Part shown: positions 1,119 through 58,928 of the stretch, in pieces | Numbering within the stretch: the first letter of the stretch is position 1 | How the letters are laid out: the number at the start of each line of letters is the position of its first letter | From: an uncultured Elusimicrobiales bacterium | GTDB taxonomy: Bacteria > Elusimicrobiota > Elusimicrobia > Elusimicrobiales > CAZFMJ01 | Direction: 5' to 3' | DNA: 58,928 nucleotides | NCBI GenBank assembly: GCA_964520045.1 | Contig: CAZFMJ010000007.1 | Location: forward strand, 1-58,928 | Program-made: the position numbers and the translations under genes | Notes under the pieces: model-generated | Databases searched by the model: none | What the model was told of the DNA's origin: nothing | The model's input: the letters and a program-made list of their open reading frames with translations, nothing else

Positions 1119-4100
1119 CTATTTAAATGAAAGAACGGATTCAAGCAGGCTTAGGGGGTCTTCGAAAATTCCGTTTATCCTGAAGCCGTCGCCGAGTTTT
1201 GAAGGCAGGAAGACGATATTGTCTTTGAACCGTTCGTTCCATGCCGTTACGGCCGACGGGGGGATAACCGCTCCCTGCCCGAAAAAAATTTCAATGCCCT
1301 GCTCCGTCTGGTTTACAAGTCTTATTCCCATAGAGGCGCATTTTTTTCTGGTCTCGATAAGGCGCGCCGTATTCTTCAGCGGCTGGGGCGCCGGTCCGCA
1401 GAGGTCTTCGATCTCCGCAAGTATGCTTTTAAGCCCCGAGGCGTCCGCATTGAGGAATTTTTTGTAATAATTGAGCCGTTCCTGTTCGTCGGGAAGATAC
1501 TGCTCCGGTATGAAAGCCGGAATTTTCAGGTCGACGGCGGTTTCCGGCTCCATGGTCCGGGCGGTTTTTCCCTTAAGCCTGTCTATTTCTTCGGCCAGAA
1601 GCTCGCAGTACATGCTTAAGCCCACTTCCGCAAGAAAGCCGTGCTGGCGCACTCCCAGAAGTTCGCCCGCCCCGCGTATTTCCATGTCGCGCATGGCCAG
1701 TCTGAACCCGGAGCCTAATTCTCCGAATTCCTGAAGCGCCGACAGTCTTTTCACCGCGTTTTCGGACATTTTCCTGGTTTTATCGGTTTCTTCCGCATCG
1801 GGATCGATCCATTCGTCATCTCTTAAGCTCCGCCTTTTCCTTTGACCGCGTTCCGGATGTCCGCCGTCCTTCTTAAGCCATGGGGGATAAAAAAGCCAGC
1901 AGTAGGCTTTCTGCTTTTCCCGTCCTATTCTTCCCCTCAGCTGATAAAGCTGGGCAAGGCCGAATTCATGGGCATTTTCTATTATAATGGTGTTTACCGA
2001 AGGTATGTCCAGCCCCGATTCTATTATTGTGGAAGCAAGGAGCACATCGTATTTTTTGCCGAAAAAATCCCACATCGCGTTTTCAAGTCTGCCGGATTCC
2101 ATCTGTCCGTGCGCCATCACGAATTTAACTTCAGGCATGGCGCGCGAAAGGAACGCCAGCCTTGCGGGCAGAGTCCTGACCCTGTTGTGCACGTAATATA
2201 CCTGTCCGCCGCGCTCAAGCTCCGCGCGCACCGCGGATACGGCGGTATCCTCGTTCCACGGCATTACAAAAGTTGAAATCGGAAGCCTGCCCGATGGGGG
2301 GCTTTCAATAACGGACATATCCCGCAGGTTTGACAGGGTTTGATAGAGAGTGCGGGGAATCGGGGTGGCCGAAAGCAGAAGCATGTGCACGTCTTTTGCC
2401 AGTATTTTGAGCTTTTCCTTGTCTTTTACCCCGAAGCGGTGCTCTTCGTCCACTATGACAAGCCCTATATTTTTAAATTTTATATCCTTCTGGAGCAGGC
2501 GGTGGGTGCCGATAGCTATATCGGCGATCCCGGCTGAAATATTGTCTATGATCTTTTTCTGTTCGGATTTTGTCTGGAAGCGGGATAATACCGCGATATT
2601 AAGCGGAAAGCCGGAAAATCTTTCGGTGAATGTCCTGTGGTGCTGGTCGGCTAGTATGGTGGTGGGGACAAGCACCGCCGTTTGTTTTCCTCCTAAGGCG
2701 CATCTTAAAGCCGCCCGCATGGCCACTTCCGTCTTTCCGAATCCCACGTCGCCCACCACGATTCTCTCCATCGGTTTGGAGGCGGACATGTCTTTGAGCA
2801 CATTTTCAATGGCGTTTTTCTGGTCGGGAGTTTCTTCGTAGGGAAAGGAATCTGCGAATTCATTTTCAATATGGCTTTCGCCGGACAGGGCGGGCCCTTT
2901 TGAAAGGGCGCGTTCGGCTTCAATCCGGAGAAGCTCTTTTGCCACATTCTCGATTCCGGAGCGCACCCTGCCTTTTATCTGCGACCAGCCTTTGGTGTCC
3001 ATTTTAGACAGGCGCGGAGCCTTTCCTTCCGAGCCTATGTATTTCTGGACTTTTTTAAATTCATACAGCGGAACAAAAAGCTTGTCCCCTCCTTTATACT
3101 CAATATGCAGGCAGTCGGTTTCTTCGCAGGCGCTTGGGATGTCCGAACCCGAGATAACCGACATGTGGCTGATGAAATCCGATTCCGGGGATACCTTTTT
3201 TAAGCCCTGATACCTTCCGATGCCGTAATCTTCATGCACCACATAGTCGCCGTTTTTGAGATCGTTCCAGCGGTAGCGTTTTGCCCCCGAGTCGCGGTAT
3301 TTCCAAAAGGAGGCGCGTTTGTAGCTTCGGCCCAGTATTTCGCCGGATGCGATAACCGCAAGTTTTGTTTCCGCGCTGTAAAACCCCTGCGCGATTCTTC
3401 CGATTGCGAATTCGCATATGTTCGTGATTTTTGCGCCGTCAAAGAGCTCTATAAGCCGTTCTTCTTCTCCCGTGTTAAGGCAGAAAATTATTATTCTGAA
3501 CCCTTTTTCCTTCAACCGCAGAGCTTCTTTTTCCAAGAGGGAAACATCGGCGTTAAACCGTATGTTCGAGCAGATTTTACTGTCAAGAGTTTGTTCCGAA
3601 TCCGGGCTTATCGCGGTTATGAATGAGAAGCCGTCGGGCAGCGGCCCAGTCAGAACAGAGGGTTGCAAGTCACTAGTCACCATGTCACCAGTCGGGGGAA
3701 AGTCACCAGATACAGGATTAGTCACCAAGTCACCAGTCAGGGGAAAGTCACCAGACACGGAATTAGTCACCAAGTCACCAGTTACAGAGTCACTAGACGA
3801 TAAAGAGTCACCAGTTGCCAGTCTCCGGTCTTTAGTTTGACTTGTTTTTTTGTTCTGTCTGGTGACATGGGCCGCTGGTGACTGGTGACTTCTGAATTGC
3901 TGTCCAGCTGTCCCGTCGTCCCGCTGGCTGGTGTCGTCGTTTGCAAGGAAGGAGAAGGAGCCGTCAAGCCAATCTCTAAGCGAGGCTTCGCCCTTTTTCA
4001 TCTTTGCCGGTAAAATCGTCACATCATGGACCGGCAGGTCTGTGCGCTGTGTCGGTATGTCGAAGATGCGTCCGCTTTCAAATACGTCTCCCGAAAAAAA

Positions 4101-4613
4101 TAGCCTTACCGGCTTCATCGGTTCAAGGCAGAAAATATCGATTATGGAACCCCGCACGGCATACTCGCCGGGGCTTTCCACAAAATCGGAACGCTCGTAG
4201 CCGGCGTTTTCCAAAACCGACAGAAGACCGGCGCGTTTGTAAGCCGTGCCCGTGCGCAGGTCCATTTTAGCCTGAGCATATGTCTGCGGTGAAAAAATTT
4301 TTTCCCGCAGGCTGGCATAAGTGGCCAGAATTATAAATTTGTCCGCGTCTTTATTGTTAAGCAGGCGGTCGAGAGTGATGGAGCGGGACCATTGGTCTTC
4401 GCCGAAAACAAGGGTTTCTATCCCTTTTGCCTCCGGCAGAACCTTTATCATGGAATCCAGAGAATCCTGAAAGTCGGAAATAAATTCTTCCCGCTGCGCC
4501 GCAAAAAGCAGATTTCTCCCGTTTTCATAAACAAACCGGACCGAGAAATAAGCCTTTGCGCCTATCGTAGGCAGTCCGCAGATATATTTTGGAAGAGAAG
4601 GATCATCAGGCAT
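1119..4613 (-). CDS. mfd: Transcription-repair coupling factor Mfd, carrying a repeat-derived in-frame insert
   Basis: 1164-aa ORF. Motifs: DYVVHEDYGIGRY (CarD/RID-like), VGDVGFGKTEVA (Walker A), VIVDEEHRFGV (DEEH box), SATPIPRT, QLYQLRGRIGR. Confidence 0.93.
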   Translation of the reverse strand: MPDDPSLPKYICGLPTIGAKAYFSVRFVYENGRNLLFAAQREEFISDFQDSLDSMIKVLPEAKGIETLVFGEDQWSRSITLDRLLNNKDADKFIILATYASLREKIFSPQTYAQAKMDLRTGTAYKRAGLLSVLENAGYERSDFVESPGEYAVRGSIIDIFCLEPMKPVRLFFSGDVFESGRIFDIPTQRTDLPVHDVTILPAKMKKGEASLRDWLDGSFSFLANDDTSQRDDGTAGQQFRSHQSPAAHVTRQNKKTSQTKDRRLATGDSLSSSDSVTGDLVTNSVSGDFPLTGDLVTNPVSGDFPPTGDMVTSDLQPSVLTGPLPDGFSFITAISPDSEQTLDSKICSNIRFNADVSLLEKEALRLKEKGFRIIIFCLNTGEEERLIELFDGAKITNICEFAIGRIAQGFYSAETKLAVIASGEILGRSYKRASFWKYRDSGAKRYRWNDLKNGDYVVHEDYGIGRYQGLKKVSPESDFISHMSVISGSDIPSACEETDCLHIEYKGGDKLFVPLYEFKKVQKYIGSEGKAPRLSKMDTKGWSQIKGRVRSGIENVAKELLRIEAERALSKGPALSGESHIENEFADSFPYEETPDQKNAIENVLKDMSASKPMERIVVGDVGFGKTEVAMRAALRCALGGKQTAVLVPTTILADQHHRTFTERFSGFPLNIAVLSRFQTKSEQKKIIDNISAGIADIAIGTHRLLQKDIKFKNIGLVIVDEEHRFGVKDKEKLKILAKDVHMLLLSATPIPRTLYQTLSNLRDMSVIESPPSGRLPISTFVMPWNEDTAVSAVRAELERGGQVYYVHNRVRTLPARLAFLSRAMPEVKFVMAHGQMESGRLENAMWDFFGKKYDVLLASTIIESGLDIPSVNTIIIENAHEFGLAQLYQLRGRIGREKQKAYCWLFYPPWLKKDGGHPERGQRKRRSLRDDEWIDPDAEETDKTRKMSENAVKRLSALQEFGELGSGFRLAMRDMEIRGAGELLGVRQHGFLAEVGLSMYCELLAEEIDRLKGKTARTMEPETAVDLKIPAFIPEQYLPDEQERLNYYKKFLNADASGLKSILAEIEDLCGPAPQPLKNTARLIETRKKCASMGIRLVNQTEQGIEIFFGQGAVIPPSAVTAWNERFKDNIVFLPSKLGDGFRINGIFEDPLSLLESVLSFK
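3660..3940. repeat. GTCACCA/GGTGAC plus CTGGAC short-period repeat block inside the mfd CDS
   Basis: GTCACCAGT/GTCACCAAGTCACCAG units at 3667-3815, a spacer, then inverted GGTGACATGGGCCGCTGGTGACTGGTGAC (3861-3890) and GTCCAGCTGTCCCGTCGTCCCGCTGG. This is the same vocabulary as the intergenic arrays at 9822-9839, 38021-38139 and 53030-53100. Confidence 0.85.
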
Positions 4614-4708
4614 ATTTAATTTATATTGTATATTTTATAAAAGCATATGGGTTTGTCCAAATGATATAATTTATATTCAAAATCAGACAGAATGCGGATG
4701 TATGTGAT

Positions 4709-5230
4709 GAACGTGGATAATTACCAACATTCGAAAAAAAACGAAGACTAACCGCAAAGAACGCAAAGTAAACGCAAAGGACACGGAGTGAATCCGATGG
4801 AGATGACGGAAAACGCATTGTCCAACCAAGTCATTGGCATGGCGATGAAAGTACATTCCGCCCTTGGCCCAGGCTTATTGGAAAGCGCGTATAAAGAATG
4901 CTGCTACTATATACTCACAAAAAGCGGCCTATGTGTGGAGAAAGAAAAGCCCGTTCCGCTGGTGTTTGAGGATGTGAAACTTGATTGTGGCTATCGTATG
5001 GATCTCCTCGTAGAAAACCGGTTGGTGATTGAAGTTAAATCGGTGGAAGCGCTGACTGATGTTCATCTGGCGCAGGTATTGACCTATTTGAAAATCGGAA
5101 ATTATAAGCTTGGGTTATTGATGAATTTTAATGTTGTAAGACTGAAAGACGGAATAAAACGTGTTGTTAATGGTTTGTAACTTTTGCGTTCTTAGCGTAA
5201 ATACTTTGCGTTCTTTGCGGTTATTTTTTT
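4709..5230 (+). mobile_element. Intact GxxExxY gene cassette with 21-bp perfect terminal inverted repeats
   Basis: AACCGCAAAGAACGCAAAGTA at 4750-4770 and its exact reverse complement at 5202-5222. The upstream leader GATAATTACCAACATTCGAAAAAAAACGAAGAC is shared with the miniature copies. Confidence 0.55.
4788..5180 (+). CDS. GxxExxY family protein (PD-(D/E)XK nuclease-like)
   Basis: 130-aa ORF containing GPGLLESAYKEC (the GxxExxY motif) and a D...E.K-like core (YRMDLLVENRLVIEVKSV). The real start is probably ATG at 4797 or 4803. The gene is flanked by CGCAAAG-rich inverted repeats. Confidence 0.85.
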   Translation: MNPMEMTENALSNQVIGMAMKVHSALGPGLLESAYKECCYYILTKSGLCVEKEKPVPLVFEDVKLDCGYRMDLLVENRLVIEVKSVEALTDVHLAQVLTYLKIGNYKLGLLMNFNVVRLKDGIKRVVNGL

Positions 5231-5243
5231 TGATTTATCGCTT

Positions 5244-6356
5244 ATGGATAAATGGATTGAGATAAACCTTGGGGCGGTGCGCGGCAATGTGCGGAAAATA
5301 AAGGAAAAGCTTTCGCCGTCCGCTTTTTTAACGGCTGTGGTGAAAGCCGACGGCTACGGGCATGGGGCCGCGGAAATAGCCGGAGTCGCCGTTGAGGAAG
5401 GGGCATATGCTTTGGGAGTCTTCGGCATAGACGAGGCGGTCGCATTAAGAAATGCCGGAATAAAAGGCCTTATTTTTTTACTGCGTCCCCAGCTGCCGGG
5501 GGATGCCGCCGAAATAGTGAGGAACCGGCTCATTCCTGCGGCAGACTCCGTTGATTTTATCGCGGCTCTTAACAAAGCCGCGGGAAAATATTTTTACCGG
5601 AAATCATCCATGTCTTCCCGTTTTCCGCTTTATCCGTATCATCTGGACATCGACTTCGGGCTGGGAAGATGGGGGATAAATCCGTCCGAAACAAAGAATT
5701 TTTTATGCTCCGCCGGCAAATTCAGGAACGTACGGCTGGGCGGGGTGTCCACCCACCTTGACTATGTGCCTGGTAAAAATGCGGTGGAAGCCGAGGAAAA
5801 ACTTTTAAAATTTAAGCGCTGCTGCGGTACCGTCAAAAGTTTTTATCCGGATGCCGTGTGCCATGCGGCAAACAGCTCGATTTTTATGGATTTTCCGCAT
5901 TGGCATATGGATATGGCCAGAATAGGCAATCTGATGTACGGAATACATCCGGCCGCGGCTCACGGACAGCCGGTTAAAGCGGAACTGGCCGGATTTAAAA
6001 ACCCGTGGAAGTTTCGCGCGAAAATAATTTCCGTCAAAACGGTTTCAAAAGGGGTTTCGATCGGCTATGCAAGCGAATACATAGCTCCGAAAAGAATGAA
6101 AATAGCCGCCGTGGCGGCCGGATATTCCGACGGAATAACAATGGAGCCCGCCGAGAGGTTTATAAGACTCGGCGGGGCGTTCCAGTACTGGGGTATGATA
6201 CGGGGAAGACAGGCGCCTTTTATAGGCAGGTGCGCGATTTCGCATACGCTTTTGGACGTGACAAAAGTTCCCGGCGCTAAAGCGGGAGATATCGTTCAGC
6301 TTCCCCTGCGCAGAACCGCCGCAAGCCGGGGAATACCGAGGATTTATATACGGTAA
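5244..6356 (+). CDS. alr: Alanine racemase
   Basis: 370 aa. PLP-lysine motif VVKADGYGHG. The N-terminus, WIEINLGAVRGNVRKIK, is typical of Alr. Confidence 0.9.
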   Translation: MDKWIEINLGAVRGNVRKIKEKLSPSAFLTAVVKADGYGHGAAEIAGVAVEEGAYALGVFGIDEAVALRNAGIKGLIFLLRPQLPGDAAEIVRNRLIPAADSVDFIAALNKAAGKYFYRKSSMSSRFPLYPYHLDIDFGLGRWGINPSETKNFLCSAGKFRNVRLGGVSTHLDYVPGKNAVEAEEKLLKFKRCCGTVKSFYPDAVCHAANSSIFMDFPHWHMDMARIGNLMYGIHPAAAHGQPVKAELAGFKNPWKFRAKIISVKTVSKGVSIGYASEYIAPKRMKIAAVAAGYSDGITMEPAERFIRLGGAFQYWGMIRGRQAPFIGRCAISHTLLDVTKVPGAKAGDIVQLPLRRTAASRGIPRIYIR

Positions 6357-6378: not shown

Positions 6379-6451
6379 GACCCATTCCTTCCTCAAAGGC
6401 ATTGAGAATGGGTCAGTCCAAACTCATTGCTTCTGAGGAAGGTTTGGACAG
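6379..6451 (+). repeat. Double-hairpin REP/MITE-like element, copy 1
   Basis: CCCATTCCTTCC..TTGAGAATGGG (hairpin 1), then GTCCAAACTCA..GGTTTGGAC (hairpin 2). Confidence 0.85.
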
Positions 6452-6482
6452 AGACGCGGAGGGCGCAGAGAAGCAACTGAGC

Positions 6483-9770: not shown

Positions 9771-9840
9771 AAGAAGACGGTAGACGGCTAACTGGGGAGA
9801 AGAGGCGGGACAGCAATTAAGAAGTCACCAAGTCACCAGC
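9771..9840 (+). repeat. Heptamer (GACGGTAGACGG) and GTCACCA repeats after the symporter stop
   Basis: AAGAAGACGGTAGACGGC...GAAGTCACCAAGTCACCAGC. Confidence 0.7.
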
Positions 9841-9842
9841 CA

Positions 9843-9903
9843 TCCCAAACTTTCAGGTTAATTGGGGTGGCCCATTCTCAAGGCTTTAATGGAAAGAATG
9901 GAC
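9843..9903 (-). repeat. REP-like element, copy 2 (inverted, degenerate)
   Basis: TCCCAAAC..TTGGGG followed by CCCATTCTCAAGGCTTTAATGGAAAGAATGG, which is the reverse-complement orientation of the consensus. Confidence 0.65.
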
Positions 9904-9923
9904 CGTCTACTATCTACCGTTCC
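9903..9923 (-). repeat. Heptamer array; the purine version is on the minus strand, after the stop of the minus-strand gene
   Basis: CCGTCTACTATCTACCGTTCC on the + strand. Confidence 0.7.
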
Positions 9924-9928
9924 CTTGA

Positions 9929-10270
9929 TTATTTCAATGAAAATCTGCTTCCAAGCATAACATAGCTTTCTTTTTGGTCGGCGGACACCACCCTGATATA
10001 ATACTGGTATTGAATCGTCGTTGTTTTCTTTACCGCCGCTTTTTCCTCTTCGGTGAGCGTTCTGAGATAGCCGAAATATTTTCCGCGGAAGTTGACAAGC
10101 TGTCCGTTGAGCATCACTTCAGGGCTTATATTCAGCGGGCCCATATCCTCTATGGTTATGTGCGGAACGCGGAATGTCCACTTATTTTCGGCGCAGTACA
10201 CCGCCAGATTGGCGTCTCCCGAAGGCGAGGGGAAATATTCCCGCAGTTCGCGGTTTACGTAAAAATGCAC
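9929..10270 (-). CDS. Hypothetical protein; possibly the 3' part of a frameshifted secreted-protein gene
   Basis: 113-aa ORF with no recognisable motif. A signal-peptide mini-ORF at 10255-10368 overlaps its 5' end in another frame (see findings). Confidence 0.45.
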   Translation of the reverse strand: MHFYVNRELREYFPSPSGDANLAVYCAENKWTFRVPHITIEDMGPLNISPEVMLNGQLVNFRGKYFGYLRTLTEEEKAAVKKTTTIQYQYYIRVVSADQKESYVMLGSRFSLK

Positions 10271-15651: not shown

Positions 15652-15810
15652 GTCCAAACAAACCTTCCCGCCACTACAGCAAGGCGGGATCTCGCCCTCC
15701 GCCAAAAGCGGAGAGGCGGAAACGGCAGTGAGTTTGGACTGCCCTGAGACTTCGCTCAGGACTGCCTGCTGGACTGTCCCATTCTCACAGCTTTTGAGGA
15801 AGGAATGGGG
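15652..15810 (-). repeat. REP-like element, copy 3 (inverted, with nested inserts)
   Basis: GTCCAAAC..[~60-nt insert]..TGAGTTTGGAC, then an extra hairpin GCCCTGAGACTTCGCTCAGG, then CCCATTCTCACAGCTTTTGAGGAAGGAATGGGG. Confidence 0.75.
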
Positions 15811-15834
15811 CTGACTTCTGAATCCTGTCTACTC
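15811..15834 (-). repeat. Inverted GAATTC-type/heptamer arm before ptb
   Basis: CTGACTTCTGAATCCTGTCTACTC, an inverted relative of the 15596 arm. The two arms bracket REP copy 3. Confidence 0.7.
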
Positions 15835-21371: not shown

Positions 21372-21444
21372 GTCCCATTCTTTCCTTGAAAGGCTTTGAG
21401 AATGGGTCAGTCCAAACTCACTGCCCTTAAGGATAGTTTGGGGC
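21372..21444 (+). repeat. REP-like element, copy 4
   Basis: GTCCCATTCTTTCCTTGAAAGGCTTTGAGAATGGGTCAGTCCAAACTCACTGCCCTTAAGGATAGTTTGGGG. Confidence 0.85.
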
Positions 21445-21477
21445 AGCGTTATCAGCGTTCTATATTTAGTTGATGTT

Positions 21478-22329
21478 ATGAAAATTATTCTTTTTGACAT
21501 AGACGGAACGCTTGTAAAAGCCGGCGGAGCCGGAAAACTCGCCTTAAACAAGGCGGTAAAGACCCTTCACGGCGCCGAGGATGTCTGCTCAAAATTTTAT
21601 CTTGCCGGAGGCACCGATAAGGTTAATTTTATGCAGGCTTTTATCGAGGCAAAAGGCAGAAAGCCGGCAAGGAAGGAAGTAAAGGCCGTAGAAAAAAAAT
21701 ATCTCGAACTCCTGCCGGCGGAAGTGGACAATGCGGTTAAAGACGGCAGATACATGGAAATACCCGGAGTCGCGCAATTGCTTAAGTTTTTATCAAAACG
21801 CAGAGATGTTTTTATCGGGCTCGGCACGGGAAATCTAAAAAAGGGCGCTTTTATAAAGCTCAAGCCTTCGGGTTTGTCAAAATATTTTATATTCGGTGGA
21901 TTCGGCTGTGATTCCTATGAAAGGGCGGAAGTGCTGAAAAAGGCTGTTAAAAGGGCGGAGAAAATAGCGGGCAGAAAAGCGCGGGTCTGCGACGTGTATA
22001 TTATAGGAGACACCCATAAGGATGTTTCCGCCGGAAAAGAGGCGGGGTATCATACCGGCGCCGTAACGTGCGGTTTCGGCGACCGTTCTAAAATAATGAG
22101 AACAGGGCCTGAGCTTGTTGCCGAAGATTTTACGGATTTATCCCCGTGGCTTATATGGCTTGGGCTGAAAAAAGACCCGAAAGGAATAAAACGCGATTCG
22201 CTGATGTTTCCGGACACGCCTATCGAACATGTGCAATACGCGAGAACAGGAGAAGAGGGTAGATGGGAGACGGTAGACGGTAGACGGCAAATGGGGAAAG
22301 GGAGACGGAAGAGTAAAAACGGCAAATGA
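21478..22329 (+). CDS. HAD-superfamily hydrolase (phosphatase)
   Basis: Motif I is ILFDIDGTLV. Motif IV-like is YIIGDTHKDV. The last ~25 aa (GEEGRWETVDGRRQMGKGRRKSKNGK) are translated from the heptamer repeat array. Confidence 0.8.
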   Translation: MKIILFDIDGTLVKAGGAGKLALNKAVKTLHGAEDVCSKFYLAGGTDKVNFMQAFIEAKGRKPARKEVKAVEKKYLELLPAEVDNAVKDGRYMEIPGVAQLLKFLSKRRDVFIGLGTGNLKKGAFIKLKPSGLSKYFIFGGFGCDSYERAEVLKKAVKRAEKIAGRKARVCDVYIIGDTHKDVSAGKEAGYHTGAVTCGFGDRSKIMRTGPELVAEDFTDLSPWLIWLGLKKDPKGIKRDSLMFPDTPIEHVQYARTGEEGRWETVDGRRQMGKGRRKSKNGK

Positions 22330-22369
22330 TTTTTTTTACCGTTTACCTTTTACCATCTACCTTCTACCG
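22250..22369. repeat. Composite heptamer unit overlapping the HAD gene 3' end
   Basis: GGAGAAGAGGGTAGATGGGAGACGGTAGACGGTAGACGG...core...TACCGTTTACCTTTTACCATCTACCTTCTACCG. Confidence 0.85.
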
Positions 22370-22425: not shown

Positions 22426-23289
22426 ATGTCTTTTCCTAATTTTAAGAATAAGTACGGGCAAAAACCTGTTTTCACGGCAAAGGACTATCTTAAATATCTG
22501 GAAAACACAAACCGTCTTCCCGGTTTTAAGCCTCCCGAAGGTATAATTTTCTGCTACAGCCGCAGGTTTATCGAACAAGTTCTTAGAAAACATAAAATAG
22601 CCGACGCCGCGGGTTTCGGCGGCAGAATATATCTATTGGAAGAGTCCGGCCGGCGGATAGGTGTCGCGCTATCGGGGATAGGCGCGCCTGCCGTTATAAC
22701 GAGGATGGAGGAATATATCGCCTTCGGGGTTAAAAAATTTATTTCAATAGGAACAGCCGGCAGTCTGCAGAAAGATTTGGATATAGGAAGTCTTGTAATA
22801 TGCGAAAAGGCGATAAGAGATGAAGGCGTGTCGCATCATTATCTTCCGCCGTCAAAATACGCATATGCTTCAAAAGATCTGACCAAAAAAATTATAAATG
22901 CCGTGAAATCAGCCGGCCTGAAATATACCTGCGGTCCAAACTGGACAATAGACGTCCCGTATATGGAAACAAAAGCTGAAATTAAAAAATATCAGCGGGA
23001 AGGGGTGTTGACCGTAGATATGGAAGCGGCATCAATTTTTGCCGCGGCGCAGCGCAGGGATGTTCAAGCCGGCGCAGTTTTTATGGTGAGCGATTCTTTG
23101 GCGGATTTAAAATGGAATCCGCAGTTTCACTCGGTAAAATTAAATGCGGGTTTTGAGACTGTATTTAATTCCTGCGTTTCGGCCTTGTCGGTAAATACCC
23201 GGCAGAACGCAGACCCATTCTTTCCCTCAAAAGCTTTGAGAATGGGTCAGTCCAAACTCACCGCTTTTATGGATGGTTTGGGCAGATGA
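22426..23289 (+). CDS. Nucleoside phosphorylase (PNP_UDP_1 family)
   Basis: GVLTVDMEAASIFAAAQ and ISIGTAGS motifs. The C-terminal ~25 aa and the stop codon lie inside a REP copy (23212-23284). Confidence 0.8.
   Translation: MSFPNFKNKYGQKPVFTAKDYLKYLENTNRLPGFKPPEGIIFCYSRRFIEQVLRKHKIADAAGFGGRIYLLEESGRRIGVALSGIGAPAVITRMEEYIAFGVKKFISIGTAGSLQKDLDIGSLVICEKAIRDEGVSHHYLPPSKYAYASKDLTKKIINAVKSAGLKYTCGPNWTIDVPYMETKAEIKKYQREGVLTVDMEAASIFAAAQRRDVQAGAVFMVSDSLADLKWNPQFHSVKLNAGFETVFNSCVSALSVNTRQNADPFFPSKALRMGQSKLTAFMDGLGR
23212..23284 (+). repeat. REP-like element, copy 5 (inside the 3' end of the nucleoside phosphorylase CDS)
   Basis: GACCCATTCTTTCCCTCAAAAGCTTTGAGAATGGGTCAGTCCAAACTCACCGCTTTTATGGATGGTTTGGGC. 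Confidence 0.85.
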
Positions 23290-23290
23290 C

Positions 23291-23612
23291 GCTGATAATT
23301 ATAAATATTAGGAAAAAAGCCGAAGACTAAACGCAAAGAACGCAAAGTAAACGCAAAGGACACAGACACATTCTTTCCTTAAAAGGCGTTGAGAATGGGT
23401 CAGTCCAAACTCATTGCCTTTTCCGCCTCTCCGTTTTTTGCGGATGGCGAGATCCCGCCGGGCTATGCGGCGGAAAGGTTTGTTTGGACAGAGTGAATCT
23501 GATGGATGAGGTGAAGACGAATTATCCAATCAGGTCGTTGGCATAGCGATGAAAGTTAATGGCTTGTAATCTTTGCGTTCTTAGCGTAAGTTCTTTGCGT
23601 CCTTTGCGGTTA
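23291..23612 (+). mobile_element. Miniature (internally deleted) GxxExxY cassette, copy B, with a nested REP
   Basis: It has the same leader and CGCAAAG repeats and keeps the 5' gene remnant ...CCAATCAGGTCGTTGGCATAGCGATGAAAGT. That remnant is joined directly to TAATGGCTTGTAA (the gene's last codons) and the right repeat. Confidence 0.6.
23367..23490 (+). repeat. REP-like element, copy 6 (with a ~60-nt nested insert in hairpin 2)
   Basis: The insert TTCCGCCTCTCCGTTTTTTGCGGATGGCGAGATCCCGCCGGGCTATGCGGCGGAAAGG is the reverse complement homolog of the insert in copy 3. Confidence 0.8.
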
Positions 23613-23674
23613 AACTTTTTGCGCTTTGGCTTGTTTATTAATGCGGGCGGTTATCTTTATCGGGGTGTTGTAGT

Positions 23675-25937: not shown

Positions 25938-25947
25938 AAAAATAAAA

Positions 25948-26170
25948 CAGAAGATTAAACGCAAAGAGCGCAAAGCAAACGCAAAGGACACAGATCCATT
26001 CTTTCCATGAAAGTCTTTGAGAATGGGCAGTCCAAACTCATTGCCTCAAAGGAAAGTTTGGACGAAGCGGATCTGATGGGAATGACGGGAAATAGACTGT
26101 CAAGGTAAGTCATCGGTATGACAATGCGGGGACAGTGAATGGTTTATAATCTTTGCGTCCTTTGCGGTTT
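25948..26170 (+). mobile_element. Miniature GxxExxY cassette, copy C, with a nested REP
   Basis: CGCAAAG left repeats, then a REP at the same position as in copy B. The remnant ends ...GACAGTGAATGGTTTATAATCTTTGCGTCCTTTGCGG. Confidence 0.55.
25995..26063 (+). repeat. REP-like element, copy 7
   Basis: TCCATTCTTTCCATGAAAGTCTTTGAGAATGGGCAGTCCAAACTCATTGCCTCAAAGGAAAGTTTGGAC. Confidence 0.85.
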
Positions 26171-26197
26171 TATTTGTGTTAAAAAAAGGAGAAGACG

Positions 26198-26958: not shown

Positions 26959-27016
26959 GTCCCATTCCTTTCTCAAGGGCTTTGAGAATGGGTCAACTTA
27001 AACTCATTCGAGTTGT
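26959..27016 (+). repeat. REP-like element, copy 8 (second hairpin degenerate)
   Basis: GTCCCATTCCTTTCTCAAGGGCTTTGAGAATGGGTCAACTTAAACTCATTCGAGTTG. Confidence 0.7.
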
Positions 27017-27023
27017 GTGGAGG

Positions 27024-27088
27024 GAAGGATGGTAGCTGTTGTTTTCTTTTACCTTCTACCGTTTACCGTCTTCCGTCTCCCGTCTATT
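27024..27088. repeat. Heptamer arms overlapping the GH20 3' end
   Basis: GAAGGATGGTAGC ... ACCTTCTACCGTTTACCGTCTTCCGTCTCCCGTCTA. Confidence 0.8.
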
Positions 27089-29116
27089 TGCTGCTTTTAT
27101 CAGTTTTTCCACGGCCGCGGCTATCATTAATTCAGCATGGCCGTAAGACTTTTTGGCTTCATCCGCTATCTTTAACCGTTCTCCAACCCATGCGCTTTCG
27201 GCTGATTTTCCAGAAGCGATGAAATCCAAAGCTTCAAGCCCCGCCTGCGATATCTTTGAAAGATTAACGGACAGCGGTTCTATTTCCTTCAATATCGGCG
27301 AGTTCTTGATCGTATCCTGAAGCCTGGCGTGATTATCTTTCCATGCGGAAAGGCGCGCTTTCAGGCTTTCCAGAAGAGCCGCATCTCCGGCAAGATATGC
27401 GTCCGCGTCCCTGCGGAAATTTCTGGCCGCCGCCGCGTCGGGCCGGCAGGCGTCCGCAAAGCGGGTGTAAGGCGAAAGGGAGTTATACATTCCCGAAAAA
27501 TGCCTGTCGTAAATTTTAATGGGCTCCGAGACATCCGCCAGAATTTTCAGCGCAGCTATGTCCCTGCCGGCTGAAAGTCTTCTGAGCATCATCTCGTAAT
27601 TTTTTTCATGGGTAAGGCCCAGTTCTTCCAGTTTCAGGCTTACGGTATCCAGCCGCTTATACATGTCTTCGATATCATTCATCTGCTCCGGCGACCAAAG
27701 CCGTTCCGCTATGGCGGCCGTGCGCGGCCAGATGCGCGAGTCTATGTTTTCAGGAGTGACAAGCTCCGACCACATGGTCGCTTCTCCTCCGAGAATTCTC
27801 TTTTTCTCCTCGTCGCTGAGTTTTAGTTCGGGGGTAAGCGGATCGGTCAAATAATGAAAATCGGTGGGCTGGACAAGGTCTATGTAATATCCGGTTGAAA
27901 GCAGACCCATATATCCCTTTTTGGCCGCGTCAGCCAGGAACTCTTTGCCCCGATATGACTGTATCACTATGTTTTTGGGCACATCCGGATGGAGGATATC
28001 GTCCCAACCTACCATTTTCCTGCCGTGGCCGGTCAGTATTTTGGCAATTTTGCTGTTGAAATACGCCTGAAGGCCGCTGTTGTCCTTAATGGAATTCTTC
28101 TTCATGAATTCCTGTATGGACTTATTGTTCGTCCAATGCAGGCCGGTCACTTCGTCTCCGCCTATGTGCAGGTATTCGTCGGGAAACAATCCCGCCATCT
28201 CTCCTAAAAATTTGTCCAGAAATTTATATACATTATTGTCGGTGGGGTTCATGGTGGGATCGGCTTTTATCCATCTGCGTTCCATGCCGTAAGGGCCGGG
28301 AGCGCTGGCAAGCTCCGGATACCCTATGAACCAGCTCGAGGTGTGTCCGGGGACGTCGAATTCCGGCACGACCCTTATTCCCAGTTCATCCGCGTATTTT
28401 ATGATGTCTTTTATCTGCTCCTGCGTGTAATAAAGGCCGTCTGACCCCAATTCGTGAAGTTTTGGAAATTTTTTGCTTTCAATGCGGAAGGCCTGGTCTT
28501 CGGTAAGGTGCCAGTGCAGAACATTAAGTTTAACCGCCGCCATTGCGTCGAGGTTGCGTTTAATAACGTCAAGGGGAAGGAAATGCCTGCAGGAGTCGAT
28601 AAGCAGTCCGCGCCACGCGAACCTCGGCTTGTCGAGTATTTCGACCACCGGGAAATAGTAGCCGTTTTCATCCCCGTTTAGAAGCTGGAGCAGCGTTTCA
28701 ATTCCGCGTACCGCTCCGATGTCGGTTACGGCGGAGAGTTCGATGTTATCAAGAGTTATTTTCAGCGAATAAGATTCGTCTTCGCCGAGCGCAACTTTTC
28801 CGTGCCGCGTTACTTTAATGAGCATTTGAGGCGCGCTGTTTTTATCTTCCGGTGTAACAAACCGCTGTTTTATAAAAAGGCCTGTTTTATCGTCAAGCCG
28901 TTTGAGCATCCTTGAGGCCTGCGAATAAAGCCGTTTGCCGGCTTCTCCCTGAACAGTCACCGTAAAAGAGCTTGTGACCGCGAATCTGCCGTCCATGGCC
29001 GTGAGGCTTTCGGGATACGGCATAAGATTATAAACAGTCGGACCTGCATGGCTGTTTATGCCCAAAAATACCGTTAAAACTGCGGCTGTCAGTAATTTGT
29101 TTATATTGTTTTTCAT
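27056..29116 (-). CDS. GH20 beta-N-acetylhexosaminidase
   Basis: PRFAWRGLLIDSCRHFLP and HIGGDEV catalytic region. I prefer the start at MKNNINKLL (29116), which has an upstream AAAGGGGA. The last ~12 aa are read from the heptamer array. Confidence 0.9.
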   Translation of the reverse strand: MKNNINKLLTAAVLTVFLGINSHAGPTVYNLMPYPESLTAMDGRFAVTSSFTVTVQGEAGKRLYSQASRMLKRLDDKTGLFIKQRFVTPEDKNSAPQMLIKVTRHGKVALGEDESYSLKITLDNIELSAVTDIGAVRGIETLLQLLNGDENGYYFPVVEILDKPRFAWRGLLIDSCRHFLPLDVIKRNLDAMAAVKLNVLHWHLTEDQAFRIESKKFPKLHELGSDGLYYTQEQIKDIIKYADELGIRVVPEFDVPGHTSSWFIGYPELASAPGPYGMERRWIKADPTMNPTDNNVYKFLDKFLGEMAGLFPDEYLHIGGDEVTGLHWTNNKSIQEFMKKNSIKDNSGLQAYFNSKIAKILTGHGRKMVGWDDILHPDVPKNIVIQSYRGKEFLADAAKKGYMGLLSTGYYIDLVQPTDFHYLTDPLTPELKLSDEEKKRILGGEATMWSELVTPENIDSRIWPRTAAIAERLWSPEQMNDIEDMYKRLDTVSLKLEELGLTHEKNYEMMLRRLSAGRDIAALKILADVSEPIKIYDRHFSGMYNSLSPYTRFADACRPDAAAARNFRRDADAYLAGDAALLESLKARLSAWKDNHARLQDTIKNSPILKEIEPLSVNLSKISQAGLEALDFIASGKSAESAWVGERLKIADEAKKSYGHAELMIAAAVEKLIKAANRRETEDGKR

Positions 29117-29212
29117 GGTATCCCCTTTGGAAATATAAATAGTCAACTATCTGATAAATATATAAAAAAAACATGTAAAAGCAAAGGAATTAAAGGGAAA
29201 TGATATAATATA

Positions 29213-32721: not shown

Positions 32722-34287
32722 ATTCCTACATTTTAGCGGCGGTTGAAAAGGGATCGTCCTTATTCTTTTTGATACGGCGAGATAGGTTTTTTTGAAGGTT
32801 TTATAAATTTCTTTATTTTCTTTTGACGGTTTTGTCAGGTTTTTTTCGTCAAATTCAATGAACTGGTTTACAAAATCAGAAACGGTCTTTTTGCAGGTTT
32901 TCTTATTGTCCGTCCACGCGGCGTGAATAGCCGCGCCCAATGCCGCGCCCTCGCCTTTGACCGGGATAACGTCGGCCTCAAAAATATCCGCTATGGTCCG
33001 TCGCCATTCCGGAGATTTCGACATTCCGCCCGTAAGATGTATCACGTCCGCTTTTATCGGGAATTTTGTATAGCCTTCATACAGATTCATCACATGGCCT
33101 TCAAGCACGGCCCGGCATAAGATCTCTTTCGTGAAATCGCCAAGGCCGAATCCGAAAAACATTGGGCGTGCATGGGGCAGGTTCGGCGTTCTTTCGCCGA
33201 TAAACCACGGCAGAAGGATCTTTCCGGAATTTCCGGGCTTGGTTTTCCGGATAATCCCTGCAAATTTCTCATGGCTTAATTTATATCTATTGATAATTTC
33301 GTTATAGCCGTTTGCGAGATTTGAAACGCACAAAAGCGGAAGATAATTTCCCGTGGAATCGCAGTAAGAGGCTATTTCCCCGTCTTCGCTTATATAAGGT
33401 CTTTTCAGGAATGTGCAGGCTGTTCCGCTTGTGCCGAGGCTTATCGTGACAATCCCTTCTTTCGCGTTTCCCGTGCCCAGCGCCCCGTACATGTTGTCGC
33501 CGGAACCCGCGTCTATCATGCAGTCCGGCGAAAACCCGTATTTTGCGCAAAGCTCAGGGGATATTCTGCCTATGAATTCATCCGCCGGTTTTACGGGGGG
33601 GAGTTTTTTAATTAAATCCCCGCTTATGGCATTGCACACATTTTTTGCCCATGTCTTTTTTATGGGGTTCCACAGAGCCATGCCTGAAACATCCCCGGGC
33701 TCCATAACACGCACCCCTGAATTTTTACCGCCGGTCAAAAACCAGTTTATGTAATTATGCACCAGAAAAAGCGCCGAGGTTTTTGCAAAAGCTTTGGGCT
33801 CATGTTTTTTGAAATGGAGTATTTTGCCCGCGGTATAGCCGGGTTTCTGGGTGTTGAGCGCCGCTTTGAGCATTTTTTCTTTTCCGCCGACGGCATCCGT
33901 AAGCTCTTCGCATTCTTTGACGGTGCTGACGTCATTCCAGAGCTTGCTGGTTTTGCGGGTGAGATTTCCTTCTTTGTCCAGACATACGAGCCCGTGCTGT
34001 TGGCCTGAGACTGATATGGCTTTTATTTTTGCCGGGTCAAATCCAGAACCCTTGAGCCGTTTGAAAAGGATGTAGAGGGCGTCAAGCCACATCTGCGGGT
34101 CTGATTCCGATACTCCTGTCCCAAGACCTTTAATAACGCCGTTTAAGGTGCTGTATTCCAGCAGGTCCTTGTCGTAATTAACCGCGGTGGTAAACACAGG
34201 CTTTTGAAGGCAATAATCCAAAAGCACAAGTTTGGCTCCCTGCGTTGAAACATCAAGTCCCAGATAGTAAGAAATGTTTTTTATCAT
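32533..34287 (-). CDS. xylB: FGGY-family carbohydrate kinase (xylulokinase-like) with an unusual ~75-aa basic C-terminal extension
   Basis: YYLGLDVSTQGAKLVLLD, ISLGTSGTACT and HLTGGMSKSPEWRRTIADIF. Kinase homology ends near ...YLAVSKRIR. The ORF then continues 189 nt antisense into bglX. Confidence 0.8.
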   Translation of the reverse strand: MIKNISYYLGLDVSTQGAKLVLLDYCLQKPVFTTAVNYDKDLLEYSTLNGVIKGLGTGVSESDPQMWLDALYILFKRLKGSGFDPAKIKAISVSGQQHGLVCLDKEGNLTRKTSKLWNDVSTVKECEELTDAVGGKEKMLKAALNTQKPGYTAGKILHFKKHEPKAFAKTSALFLVHNYINWFLTGGKNSGVRVMEPGDVSGMALWNPIKKTWAKNVCNAISGDLIKKLPPVKPADEFIGRISPELCAKYGFSPDCMIDAGSGDNMYGALGTGNAKEGIVTISLGTSGTACTFLKRPYISEDGEIASYCDSTGNYLPLLCVSNLANGYNEIINRYKLSHEKFAGIIRKTKPGNSGKILLPWFIGERTPNLPHARPMFFGFGLGDFTKEILCRAVLEGHVMNLYEGYTKFPIKADVIHLTGGMSKSPEWRRTIADIFEADVIPVKGEGAALGAAIHAAWTDNKKTCKKTVSDFVNQFIEFDEKNLTKPSKENKEIYKTFKKTYLAVSKRIRTIPFQPPLKCRNLFHHFKRYRLQVDRIRAGHNVKRARLYGLLHIFIKERQRIRRNVKFHGLRPPRLESHALKSF

Positions 34288-36824: not shown

Positions 36825-38030
36825 CTATCCCTTTGTGTTTCTTGAATCAACCCATACGGCCGATAAAAGCACGAGGCCTTTTATGATCTGCTGCCAGAAG
36901 ATCTGCACGTTCATAAGGCTCATTCCGTTGTCAAGGCTGGCCATGACAAGAGCGCCTATCAGCGCCCCTGTTATGCTTCCGCGCCCTCCGGAAAGACTGC
37001 ATCCGCCTATGACGCAGGCCGCTATTGCGCTTAACTCAAACATGCTTCCGGCGTTGGCGGTGGCCGCGTCCAGACGGGCGGTAAGCACGATGCCTCCGGC
37101 GGCGGAAAGCGCTCCCATTATCGCGAAATTCCACAAAAGAATTTTGGGTATGTCGATCCCCGATAACCGCGCCGCCTCTTTGTTCCCGCCTATGGCATAG
37201 ATGTACCTGCCGAAAGTGGTGTTGTTGGAAAGAAATATCATTAGAGCCGATACGGCAAGCAGAATGATAACGGGGGCCGGTATCCCGCAGTATTTGTTCA
37301 TGACCGCCGTAAATATTATTATCCCAAGCGCCGATGAAGAGACCGCAAGGCCGAAAGTCCATAGAGGTCCGGCAGGCAGGCCGTAGGATATGGTTTTCCT
37401 TCTTTTGTTCCACATCAAAAAGGCGCATAAAACGGATGCGGTCAAAGATATTGCCCATCCCGCGGACGCCGGCACATAGGCTTGTCCAATGTCCCTGAAA
37501 AAGGTTTCCATAGGGCTTATCGTTATGCCGTCCGTTATTCCGAGTATGGCGCCCCTGAAAATAAGCATTCCGGCAAGCGTGACGATAAACGAGGGGACAT
37601 TCTGATATGCGGTCCAAAAACCCTGAAACAGCCCTATCAGCGCGCCCAGCAGAAGGGCTGAGAGTATCGCGGCAATGGAGATATAAAAGCTTATTTCGGA
37701 GACCTGTGAATCAGGGAAGCGCGCAAAAAGCCACGGCCCCAGCCATTTTACCTGCATCATGGCCGCGACCGCTCCGGTAAGCCCCGCGATAGAGCCGACC
37801 GAGAGGTCTATATGGCCGGAGATTATTATGAAAACCATGCCTACGGCCAAAAAGGATATCACCGCCGTCTGCCTGAAAAGGTTGGAAAGGTTCCGGGCCT
37901 CAAAAAATATGCCGTCCGTCACGGCGGAAAAGAAAATCCATATCGCAAGCAGGGCGAAGATCATTGTAAACGACCGCAGATGTGATTTTATAAAGTTCAT
38001 ATATTTATCCTCATCAGAAGAAGTCACCAA
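36825..38030 (-). CDS. xylH: Sugar (xylose-type) ABC transporter permease
   Basis: 401-aa polytopic protein with YAIGGNKEAARLSGI, the characteristic motif of XylH/RbsC-type permeases. Confidence 0.85.
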   Translation of the reverse strand: MVTSSDEDKYMNFIKSHLRSFTMIFALLAIWIFFSAVTDGIFFEARNLSNLFRQTAVISFLAVGMVFIIISGHIDLSVGSIAGLTGAVAAMMQVKWLGPWLFARFPDSQVSEISFYISIAAILSALLLGALIGLFQGFWTAYQNVPSFIVTLAGMLIFRGAILGITDGITISPMETFFRDIGQAYVPASAGWAISLTASVLCAFLMWNKRRKTISYGLPAGPLWTFGLAVSSSALGIIIFTAVMNKYCGIPAPVIILLAVSALMIFLSNNTTFGRYIYAIGGNKEAARLSGIDIPKILLWNFAIMGALSAAGGIVLTARLDAATANAGSMFELSAIAACVIGGCSLSGGRGSITGALIGALVMASLDNGMSLMNVQIFWQQIIKGLVLLSAVWVDSRNTKG

Positions 38031-38235
38031 ATCACCGGTTGCCAGCCGCCCAGTTTCCCAGCGACCCAGACACCCAGCAGCCCAGTCACCCGGTTTCCCA
38101 GCCGCTCAGCGACCCAGACACCCAGTCACCCAGCAACCCTTAATCTTGTCTTTAATTCTTCGTGCCTTAGTGTCTTCGTGTGAGTATTGTTTTTTTCCGT
38201 CTACCCTCTTCACAGCTGTCCAGCCTTCTTTCCTT
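38021..38235. repeat. Octamer-period array (CCCAGNNN / GTCACCC) inside the xylG-xylH spacer
   Basis: GTCACCAAATCACCGGTTGCCAGCCGCCCAGTTTCCCAGCGACCCAGACACCCAGCAGCCCAGTCACCCGGTTTCCCAGCCGCTCAGCGACCCAGACACCCAGTCACCCAGC. It contains an internal ~42-nt duplication. CCGTCTACCC..GCTGTCCAGCC follows at 38198-38228. Confidence 0.85.
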
Positions 38236-39898: not shown

Positions 39899-40101
39899 CA
39901 AACGGTAGACGGTAAACGGTAGATGGTAAAACAAAAACTGATATCAATTTTCTTGTGTTTGTTTTGTCCACTATTTACCATTTACCTCTTTCAGTCTAGC
40001 GTCTCCCAGTTTGCCTTTAGCAATTTAGCCGTCAAGCTGTCCCGCTGTCTAGCTGCCCAGCAGCCGCTTTTCTTCCGTCTACCGTTTACCTTCTACCGTC
40101 T
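39899..40101. repeat. Composite heptamer/octamer unit filling the xylF-xylG spacer
   Basis: CAAACGGTAGACGGTAAACGGTAGATGGTAAAAC ... core ... TTTACCATTTACC...GCTGTCCCGCTGTCTAGCTGCCCAGCAGCC...CCGTCTACCGTTTACCTTCTACCGTCTTAC. Confidence 0.85.
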
Positions 40102-41587: not shown

Positions 41588-41656
41588 CCCAGTCCTTCCT
41601 TAAAGGCGATGAGAATGGGGCAGTCCAAACTCATTGTCTGTGAGGAAGGTTTGGAC
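41588..41656 (+). repeat. REP-like element, copy 9
   Basis: CCCAGTCCTTCCTTAAAGGCGATGAGAATGGGGCAGTCCAAACTCATTGTCTGTGAGGAAGGTTTGGAC. Confidence 0.8.
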
Positions 41657-41729
41657 GGAAGCCGGGAAACACGGAAAAATGAGTTGGAATTAAAAGAATT
41701 TTGCAACTACTCAACGGCAGTAATATATG

Positions 41730-46261: not shown

Positions 46262-46350
46262 GCGGAGCCGTCATTCCTGCGAAAGCAGGAATCCAGACAC
46301 ATGATAGATTCCCGATTAAAGCGTTTGGGAAATGACAGGGAAAAAAGAGG

Positions 46351-46392
46351 ACTGGCAACTGGGTGTCTGGGTCGCTGGGAAACTGGTGATGA
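46351..46392 (+). repeat. Octamer-type array (G-rich orientation)
   Basis: ACTGGCAACTGGGTGTCTGGGTCGCTGGGAAACTGGTGATGA. Confidence 0.75.
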
Positions 46393-46531
46393 CTTATAAC
46401 TTCTTGAGGGTGGAAATATGAAATTAGGAATCAATATACCTCGCAGAATTGAATTTACAAGCATTAATTTTTAATGCTGTGAATTGTATCCGCAGTCCAT
46501 ACCTGCCTCTGAATTTTGCTAAACTTTTTAT

Positions 46532-50210: not shown

Positions 50211-50220
50211 CTGCTGATTT

Positions 50221-52943: not shown

Positions 52944-53100
52944 GAGAGTAGAAAGTAGATAGTAGAAGAGAAACAGAAAGCAAGAGAAGCAACGGAAAAA
53001 TGCTGGACGGCTAGACTGCTGGCAGCCGGAACTGGTGACATGGTGACTGGTGACTCTGTCACTGGGCAACTGGGCTGCCGGGTGTCTGGGCGGCTGGGGA
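52944..53100 (+). repeat. Heptamer, then octamer/GGTGAC arrays after the DUF3467 gene
   Basis: AGTAGAAAGTAGATAGTAGAAGAGAAACAGAAAG...GCTGGACGGCTAGACTGCTGGCAGCC...CTGGTGACATGGTGACTGGTGACTCTGTCACTGGGCAACTGGGCTGCCGGGTGTCTGGGCGGCTGGGG. Confidence 0.85.
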
Positions 53101-58785: not shown

Positions 58786-58885
58786 ATAGTATATAGTATA
58801 TAGCAGAAAATAGACGGGAAAATCGGGTGTCTGGGCCGCTAGGCGGCTGGACGGCGAGACAGCTATTTAAGATGTCACCAGTCAT
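58786..58885 (+). repeat. Heptamer, then octamer arrays after the coiled-coil gene
   Basis: GTAGATAGTATATAGTATATAGCAGAAAATAGACGGG...GGGTGTCTGGGCCGCTAGGCGGCTGGACGGCGAGACAGC...GTCACCAGTC. Confidence 0.8.
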
Positions 58886-58928
58886 CTATGAAAAGGCATG
58901 TCAAGGGAATAAAAGTCCCCCGATAGCA

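Follow-up and report, generated by a model that had tools for sequence, protein, structure and literature searches.

A repeat module of intergenic spacers is probably an in-frame, tolerated part of mfd in an uncultured Elusimicrobiales bacterium

How does DNA of the kind that lies between genes come to sit inside a gene, in frame and in the middle of a large enzyme? The question is raised by a contig of an uncultured Elusimicrobiales bacterium (58,928 nt of CAZFMJ010000007.1, assembly GCA_964520045.1; this whole stretch is the window hereafter), in which mfd, the gene of the transcription-repair coupling factor, carries 300 extra nucleotides related to the repeat arrays of the surrounding spacers. 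We think it probable that a spacer module of this genome became an in-frame part of mfd, where it persists as a tolerated neutral or selfish loop, in the manner of the Rickettsia palindromic elements (RPEs). Repeats within bacterial proteins are best documented in Rickettsia; here the same outcome would be met in a free-living, uncultured Elusimicrobia-like lineage. The repeat is of another kind, namely a module with two arms of short tandem units, whose usual place is in the spacers.

The host gene is complete and intact. The open reading frame (ORF) 1119..4613, on the minus strand, has 1164 codons, and Pfam recognizes in its product UvrB_inter (residues 118-204, E 3e-16), CarD_TRCF_RID (452-526), DEAD (595-756), Helicase_C (795-898) and TRCF (1029-1119). 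The protein matches E. coli Mfd (PDB 2eyq/6x26, E 5e-164), and its N-terminal module matches both UvrB and Mfd N-terminal structures. A UvrB-homology N-terminal module, RID, superfamily-2 translocase motifs and the C-terminal TRCF domain of the Mfd/TRCF family are all present; the GFGKT and DEEH motifs are invariant across an alignment of 15 proteins. An AlphaFold2 model built with 109 homologues reaches a mean pLDDT of 82.7 and a pTM of 0.74, and resembles apo Mfd crystal structures with TM scores of 0.68-0.74 (Foldseek). In protein databases, where no exact match is recorded, the nearest sequences belong to uncultured bacteria of the Elusimicrobia type and reach 65% identity at most; the best relatives in contig collections are 55% (genome_contigs) and 53% (metagenome_contigs) identical.

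Alignment delimits the extra segment at codons 225-324 (NDDTSQ...VLTGP, window 3642-3941), with the junctions ...ASLRDWLDGSFSFLA-NDDTSQRDD...VLTGP-LPDGFSFITAISPDSEQ.... It is missing in all 14 close homologues of the 15-protein alignment: the nearest of them (P0001) has about 11 residues at this place, and the Mfd of a sister metagenome-assembled genome (MAG), P0002, bears there an unrelated insert of about 70 residues with an internal tandem duplication of 31 residues. Three relatives beyond this set (L196, L200, L002) have about 5 residues each. The site lies past the UvrB-interaction domain, in a reduced D1b region and well upstream of RID. By profile alignment, D1b of E. coli Mfd is longer at this junction, by about 85-100 residues without counterpart in this lineage; judged from these alignments, the insert lies where the protein varies in length, past the UvrB-interaction domain.

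Read in the sense of mfd, the insert has an arm with AGTCACC units, then an A-rich centre and then an arm with GGTGACT units (Table 1). The first arm holds three GTCACC units, the last at 3861-3866, and encodes FRSHQSPAAHVT; the centre, T-rich on the window strand, parts the two arms, within which 3667-3682 and 3876-3891 are inverted over 16 nt with 94% complementarity. For the unit GTCACCAG, the window has 13 occurrences where 0.47 would be expected, a count reached by no shuffle. The insert alone accounts for nine of them, with six on the plus strand (3684-3814) and three on the minus strand (3859-3889). A 45-bp tandem repeat was detected there by TRF. The insert is a composite of short-unit arrays without defined ends, not a discrete element of fixed length.

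What ties the insert to the spacers is, in the first place, its sequence. By a crude gene map about 86% of the 59-kb window is coding; the map missed a 584-residue ORF (32533-34287, minus strand), so the true coding fraction is slightly above 86% and the intergenic enrichment can only be stronger. Against this background, 12-mers of the insert occur 25 times elsewhere in the window, and 23 of these occurrences are intergenic; the 7-mers of the arrays are enriched 8- to 47-fold between genes. With blastn-short, the insert is identical at 31 of 33 positions to 9808-9840 and at 24 of 25 to 53031-53055 (E 3.6e-6 for each), and the former match takes in 16 nt of non-repeat sequence (TTCTGAATTGCTGTCC). 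Gapped alignments in the sense orientation with four spacers gave local scores of 57, 50, 40 and 38, with shuffle means of 18-19. Since shuffles overstate significance for repeat-rich DNA, antisense alignments and real spacers of other unit types were added as controls: the antisense scores for the same four spacers (38, 39, 26 and 29) are lower in every case, and spacers of other unit types score 19-31. The sense-5' arm is collinear with 9778-9840 (score 57, z 14.6) and 58846-58914 (40, z 7.1), and the sense-3' arm with 52973-53089 (50, z 11.2) and 46341-46397 (38, z 6.9), while the A-rich centre aligns with the A-rich centre of a spacer at 52973-53010. The 5' part of the insert thus corresponds to the post-stop side of two spacers (9771-9973 and 58786-58928), and its centre and 3' part to the pre-start side of two others (52940-53110 and 46220-46531).

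This correspondence extends to orientation. Most spacers of the window carry inverted arrays of 7-9-nt units at both sides, such as AGACGGT/ACCGTCT, AACGCAAAG/CTTTGCGTT, GCTGGAC/GTCCAGC and AGTCACC/GGTGACT, with a fixed polarity relative to the genes: in co-directional spacers, forward units favour the 5' half, and complements the 3' half (31/6 versus 3/22 for AGAyGGT, 6/0 versus 1/6 for CGCAAAG, 2/1 versus 1/6 for GTCACC). The order of units in the insert agrees with this polarity. Folding potential is shared as well: the RNA of the insert has a z-score of -3.9 to -4.5, and 14 of 16 spacers exceed their dinucleotide shuffles by 3.4-6.5 standard deviations, although the spacer at 9771-9973 (z -0.4) does no better than its shuffles. 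The insert is in effect a whole spacer-type module inside a gene, oriented as such modules are between genes.

The frame of mfd (frame 0) is the only one open across the 300 nt, each of the other five containing 2-13 stops. Stops make up 4.5% of triplets in spacer-type DNA, which leaves about a 1% chance of 100 open codons, given the frame. The nine sense GGTGAC units are read at codon offset 0 (GGT-GAC) six times and at offset 2 (G-GTG-AC) three times; none of the nine uses offset 1, the TGA register. This uniformity of register is partly due to the 45-bp duplication. A pure (GGTGACTT)n array would meet TGA in all frames within three units, and in the insert the units are at most paired. The length of the insert is a multiple of three, and mfd continues in the same frame on both flanks. 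The open frame and the lack of promoter-like or terminator-like sites within the insert argue for translation through it, rather than for a pseudogene or a split gene. An antisense ORF of 140 codons (3418-3840, plus strand) overlaps mfd and part of the insert; it probably arises only because the AAGTCACC strand is poor in stops.

In the AlphaFold2 model, residues 232-322 have a pLDDT below 50 and no secondary structure, and confident strands bound them on both sides (220-225, with a short helix, before, and 330-332 after). The insert is accordingly predicted to be a disordered loop of about 91 residues, in which Ser, Thr, Gly, Asp and Pro abound. The stretch from the UvrB-interaction domain to RID differs greatly in length between bacteria (2eyq, 6ac6, 6m6a), but the extra residues of the E. 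coli and mycobacterial proteins are folded domain segments, whereas those described here are repeat-derived and predicted to be disordered. Elsewhere in the model, pLDDT dips at residues 434-450, 484-495 and 925-930, and lineage-variable extra segments are found at 484-495 within RID (SPESDFISHMSVISGSDIPSACEE) and at 912-945 after motif VI (KKDGGHPERGQRKRRSLRDDEWIDPDAEETDKTR); residues 434-450, 484-495 and 912-945 (about 3264-3314, 3129-3164 and 1779-1880 of the window) are not built of array units.

An earlier note, made from the letters of this DNA alone, had located the insert in mfd, and the positions of its units and its reading frame agree with the coordinates and sequence described there. 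The same note's reading of about 100 extra residues, of kinship with intergenic spacers through GTCACC/GGTGAC and CTGGAC units, of an arm-spacer-inverted-arm layout, of a frame kept in spite of TGA-bearing units and of a site in D1b upstream of RID is borne out by the alignments and Pfam positions above, which give an insert of 90-100 residues relative to all homologues and relate its DNA to GTCACC/GGTGAC and GTCCAGC-type spacers; its proposal of a surface loop agrees with the model. Of the two spacers that it gave as examples, the one at 53030-53100 contains the 24/25 match (53031-53055), and the one at 38021-38139, immediately ahead of where gene 36825-38030 (minus strand) starts, resembles the insert weakly. 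Calling mfd an essential-type gene was an overstatement: mfd is not essential, being dispensable in model bacteria.

Table 1. Positions of the insert, its parts, its host gene and related repeats, in window coordinates except where another contig is named
Feature	Position	Strand	Basis
mfd	1119..4613	-	Pfam UvrB_inter, CarD_TRCF_RID, DEAD, Helicase_C, TRCF; structure matches
In-frame insert, codons 225-324	3642..3941	-	alignment to homologues; only frame 0 open
Sense-5' arm: GGACAGC/GCTGGAC units, AATTCAGA, then AGTCACC units	3873..3924	-	
A-rich centre, sense ACAGAACAAAAAAACAAGTCAAACTAAAGACCGG, peptide RQNKKTSQTKDR	3826..3858	-	read directly
Sense-3' arm: GGTGAC nine times, encoding TGDLVTN and SGDFP	3667..3825	-	
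45-bp (15-codon) tandem duplication, 2.4 copies, 89-92% alike	3674..3782	-	TRF, repeat search
Predicted disordered loop, residues 232-322	3648..3920	-	AlphaFold2
Related intergenic copy, post-stop side of spacer	9778..9840	+	blastn 31/33, score 57
Related intergenic copy, pre-start side, ends at ribosome-binding site of gene starting 53111	52973..53089	+	
Related intergenic copy, post-stop side	58846..58914	+	score 40
Related intergenic copy (GACTGGCAACTGG...CTGGTGATGACTT)	46341..46397	+	score 38
Related array: (GGTGAYTT)2, upstream of it (CTGGGNNN)n	38021..38139	-	weak, score 31
Palindromic repeat in mfd of the sister MAG (contig L001)	6718-6906, 7647-7671, 7971-8035		
Palindromic repeat in the alanine racemase gene (contig L001)	499-545		

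Taken together, these results can be accommodated by a simple sequence of events. A spacer-type module, with its array of units, A-rich centre and inverted array, would have entered a permissive junction of mfd in the sense orientation that it has in spacers. Only a version free of stops and with a length divisible by three could persist there, and the insert would have survived because it has both properties. A tandem duplication of 45 bp, or 15 codons, would later have enlarged it. Transcribed and translated together with mfd, it would now form a loop off the folded N-terminal module, with no effect on RID, the translocase or D7. We infer from the sequence that the insert is translated and Mfd still working, and that DNA passed from spacer to mfd rather than in the reverse direction.

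Several observations weigh against this account. The 59-kb window holds no second full-length copy of the module, of which only segments of 17-110 nt align elsewhere, and no other internal in-gene cluster of spacer 7-mers. The 97-residue peptide of the insert was compared with 5.8 billion proteins and, even with E values up to 10 allowed, matched none, so recurrence within this genome would be conjecture; the signature VTGDLVTN / SGDFP, for which the earlier note had suggested a search of other genes, likewise recurs in none of these proteins. No significant target-site duplication was found at the flanks of the insert, and no transposase or mobilising gene was found linked to GTCACC arrays. 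Lastly, some of the in-gene arrays of Omnitrophota described below may arise by replacement or in-place conversion rather than by insertion.

Candidates for what these searches lacked were tried and discarded. The flanks share a repeat, GACGGC(TCC)TTCTC(C/A)TTC, encoding DGSFSF and DGFSF, whose score as a target-site duplication was reached by 109 of 2000 shuffles and by 11 of 149 real controls; the two flanks encode strands that are ancestral in the homologues. A link between GTCACC arrays and GxxExxY nucleases was set aside, with no such gene in 114 array-bearing loci. An intein or self-splicing intron was rejected: residues 205-451 contain no Pfam domain, the insert has no predicted structure, and a comparison of the whole window with Rfam gave no hit.

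Compatible with an origin as an inserted repeat is the idea that the insert was kept for a function, either as an mRNA hairpin that acts like the intergenic modules, for instance as a site of processing or stability, and tunes mfd expression, or as a protein segment (TGDLVTN/SGDFP) serving for interaction or as a spacer, which we regard as unlikely. In favour of it, the insert equals the spacers in folding and keeps their sense polarity, and other Mfd proteins have extra structured residues at the D1b site. On the other hand, the 45-bp copies differ by 5 nt, which change three codons non-synonymously and one synonymously, and with most differences non-synonymous there is no sign of constraint at the protein level. 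Also, the peptide is unique in the database and the closest homologue does without the insert, and the intergenic modules, for which Rfam offers no match, have no known function. A selected RNA or protein function of the insert is thus possible but unsupported.

Somewhat less credible still is a local origin, in which slippage would have grown small seeds in a linker under low constraint, and a shared mutational bias would have produced a convergent likeness to spacers with no DNA being moved. The 45-bp duplication does indicate that slippage or unequal exchange acted within the insert, the P0002 protein acquired its 31-residue tandem duplication independently at the same site, and a loop of leucyl-tRNA synthetase (LeuRS) in Omnitrophota holds different 7-8-nt arrays at a near-constant length. 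Heptamers are moreover reported to be the commonest of the longer simple repeats in bacteria, with slippage as a proposed cause (PMC4679880). What disfavours local slippage is collinearity over multiple blocks: the sense alignments (31/33; scores 50-57) run through several unit types and non-repeat sequence, the insert reproduces the whole spacer layout, A-rich centre included, and convergence does not predict a 16-nt non-repeat match.

That the insert is a misjoin or collapse of repeat-rich reads, or that mfd is broken or split with an accidentally open frame, is very improbable: repeat arrays are error-prone in assembly, the insert resembles a complete intergenic spacer and has an ATG in frame towards the 3' end, but the same frame continues on both flanks across 100 open codons and a length divisible by three, the downstream catalytic motifs and domains are all intact, no stop ends the N-terminal part, no promoter- or terminator-like site is present, no GGAGG-type ribosome-binding site is seen by eye upstream of that ATG, and relatives carry independent in-frame inserts at the same site.

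If the insert is indeed a spacer module tolerated within mfd, its closest parallel are the RPEs (Ogata et al. 2000, 2002). It likewise consists of a dispersed, palindromic, non-autonomous repeat, in frame in a protein gene, presumably translated with the host protein and in a place that the fold tolerates, and a related genome (L001, see below) has one repeat in several unrelated genes. According to PMC10969869, RPEs are discrete, measure about 150 bp and fall into defined families, each encoding a conserved peptide; they are reported from Rickettsia only, in many genes per genome. The mfd insert is in frame, compatible with the fold (a disordered loop between confident strands) and able to form a hairpin; it differs in that no discrete unit of about 100-150 bp can be defined, and that neither a family consensus nor a conserved peptide nor a multitude of copies in genes is seen. 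It is instead a 300-nt composite of 7-8-nt arrays, collinear with spacers and present once in 59 kb, whose peptide is seen nowhere else and whose host belongs to an Elusimicrobia-like phylum. From unit composition and host phylum, homology to RPE-1 to RPE-10 is unlikely; by analogy, the insert is one that works like an RPE but stands outside the RPE family. The parallel drawn in the earlier note consequently holds as a working likeness, given the in-frame repeats of L001, and fails as family membership.

Arrays of heptamers offer a second comparison. The STRR heptamers of cyanobacteria are intergenic tandem 7-nt repeats. The TAACTGA repeats of marine Beggiatoaceae are tandem 7-nt units found between genes, near start codons and with an orientation bias, and the in-ORF repeats of BOGUAY are mostly at protein ends (PMC4679880). 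The arrays of the window resemble both in being tandem, concentrated between genes, near start codons, biased in orientation and present in ORFs only where stops are avoided. They differ in their units (AGACGGT, AGTCACC(A), GTCCAGC, AACGCAAAG), which do not match the described unit sequences, and in being paired and inverted; and, unlike in BOGUAY, a full two-armed module stands mid-way in an enzyme of 1164 residues.

A third comparison is with intragenic repeats of the MITE (miniature inverted-repeat transposable element) and REP (repetitive extragenic palindromic) types, such as ERIC, BOX, Correia and Anabaena MITEs, which are reviewed in PMC10969869. With these the insert shares the nature of a short non-coding hairpin repeat able to create in-frame fusions, and the inverted AGTCACC/GGTGACT arrays can pass for terminal inverted repeats. 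Unlike a MITE, it lacks a target-site duplication, and the GTCACC-type module has neither a unit-length consensus nor a linked transposase, its termini being arrays of short units rather than single repeats. No near-unit-length copies of that module were seen in the 59 kb, but they were seen for another one. The gene adjoining mfd (4788-5180, plus strand) encodes a GxxExxY / PD-(D/E)XK protein (TIGR04256, E 1.8e-40) and is flanked by inverted (AACGCAAAG)n arrays (window 4700-5260). Three internally deleted copies of this cassette, at 41730-41935, 23285-23621 and 25940-26175, are 79-87% identical to it and retain both flanks, the first 20 or so codons and the 3' end of the gene. This MITE-like behaviour of a AACGCAAAG-bracketed cassette is a clue that array-bracketed modules can move.

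In-frame repeats also occur in related genomes. The sister MAG that encodes P0002 has, on contig L001, a palindromic repeat of about 60 nt that lies in frame at three sites of mfd: near residue 461, with its two ends on either side of a larger insert near the N-terminus, and, as an inverted part, in the insert at the D1b site. A further copy, 87% identical, forms a clean insertion of 19 residues in alanine racemase when compared with the enzymes of the window and of L081, and the Mfd and alanine racemase of L001 share the peptide GGPPEAGH.

The 17-mer AGTCACCAAGTCACCAG is found in more than 114 public contigs, where about 70 would be expected by chance (an estimate for the size of the collection), and its matches are concentrated in Omnitrophota MAGs, which account for 25 among the 80 matches listed, several with multiple contigs. 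In these MAGs, (AAGTCACC)n arrays of three or four units often lie within long ORFs, on the stop-free strand and encoding the peptide KSPSHQVT. The hosts include LeuRS, ValRS, PheS (twice), TopA, PurD, PurH and MiaB (twice), and the TopA array occupies the same site in two MAGs. Compared with T. thermophilus LeuRS, the array in the Omnitrophota enzyme falls in a surface loop, for a net gain of 3 residues; after HHLPMRIVI, this loop (L126, L276, L278, L290) contains different short repeats at near-constant length, namely (AAGTCACC)n, a CCTGCCTGCC/GGCAGGCAGG palindrome, (AGACCAA)3 and (CGAATCC)n. Several Omnitrophota proteins have two copies of (AAGTCACC)3-4, and contigs with in-frame arrays are L084, L085, L099, L104, L114, L115, L118, L123, L125, L126, L131, L135, L144 and L154. 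On another Omnitrophota contig, a spacer (L110, 1960-2320) shows (TAGAGGG)n followed by the complement (CTACCTT)n beside GGTGACT arrays, tandemly duplicated, in the same architecture as the spacers of the window.

We tentatively raise the possibility, on balance a doubtful one, that all this reflects a repeat system common to Elusimicrobia-like and Omnitrophota genomes and so far undescribed, with the mfd insert as one visible case. Families of 7-9-nt arrays would bracket most spacers as inverted pairs of fixed polarity, form long intercistronic hairpins, spread by a sequence-specific process and also colonise or overwrite unconstrained loops of housekeeping proteins in a stop-free register; KSPSHQVT in aminoacyl-tRNA synthetases, TopA, PurD and PurH would be examples of such loops. 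Were this true, the modules would have a role at the RNA level, perhaps in processing polycistronic transcripts or insulating their parts, and a site of this sort would lie within the coding region of the mfd mRNA. For the larger pattern, polar array-bracketed spacers together with one octamer in frame in housekeeping genes of Omnitrophota, we found no description in the literature searched. As regards mfd itself, a spacer-derived insert would be a marker of recent repeat activity and a natural experiment on the amount of disorder that the N-terminal clamp of Mfd can bear, and, for annotation, inserts of this type should be taken neither as signatures of pseudogenes nor as new domains.

Some further features of the spacers deserve mention. 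AGACGGT-type purine-rich units stand right after the stop codon and their complement right before the next ribosome-binding site; 22254-22369, 48637-48750, 49989-50220 and 56222-56391 are examples of spacers bracketed by arrays. At least nine spacers share a conserved element of two hairpins, about 90 nt long (CCCATTCYTTCC..GAGAATGGG..GTCCAAACTCA..TTTGGAC), which as a rule is enclosed by the arrays and lies at approximately 6385-6470, 15790-15830, 21380-21450, 23375-23500, 26010-26075, 27000-27050, 41590-41660, 50030-50100 and 52470-52535. Several ORFs, 21478-22329, 50221-50946, 27056-29146 (minus strand) and 40101-41120 (minus strand), reach into the next array by anything from a few codons to some 25, and the arrays may supply their C-terminal tails or overlap their true stops. 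The last 60 or so codons of the ORF at 32533-34287, which we take to be sugar-kinase-like, overlap the convergent gene 30379-32721, a tail that looks like read-through past a lost stop.

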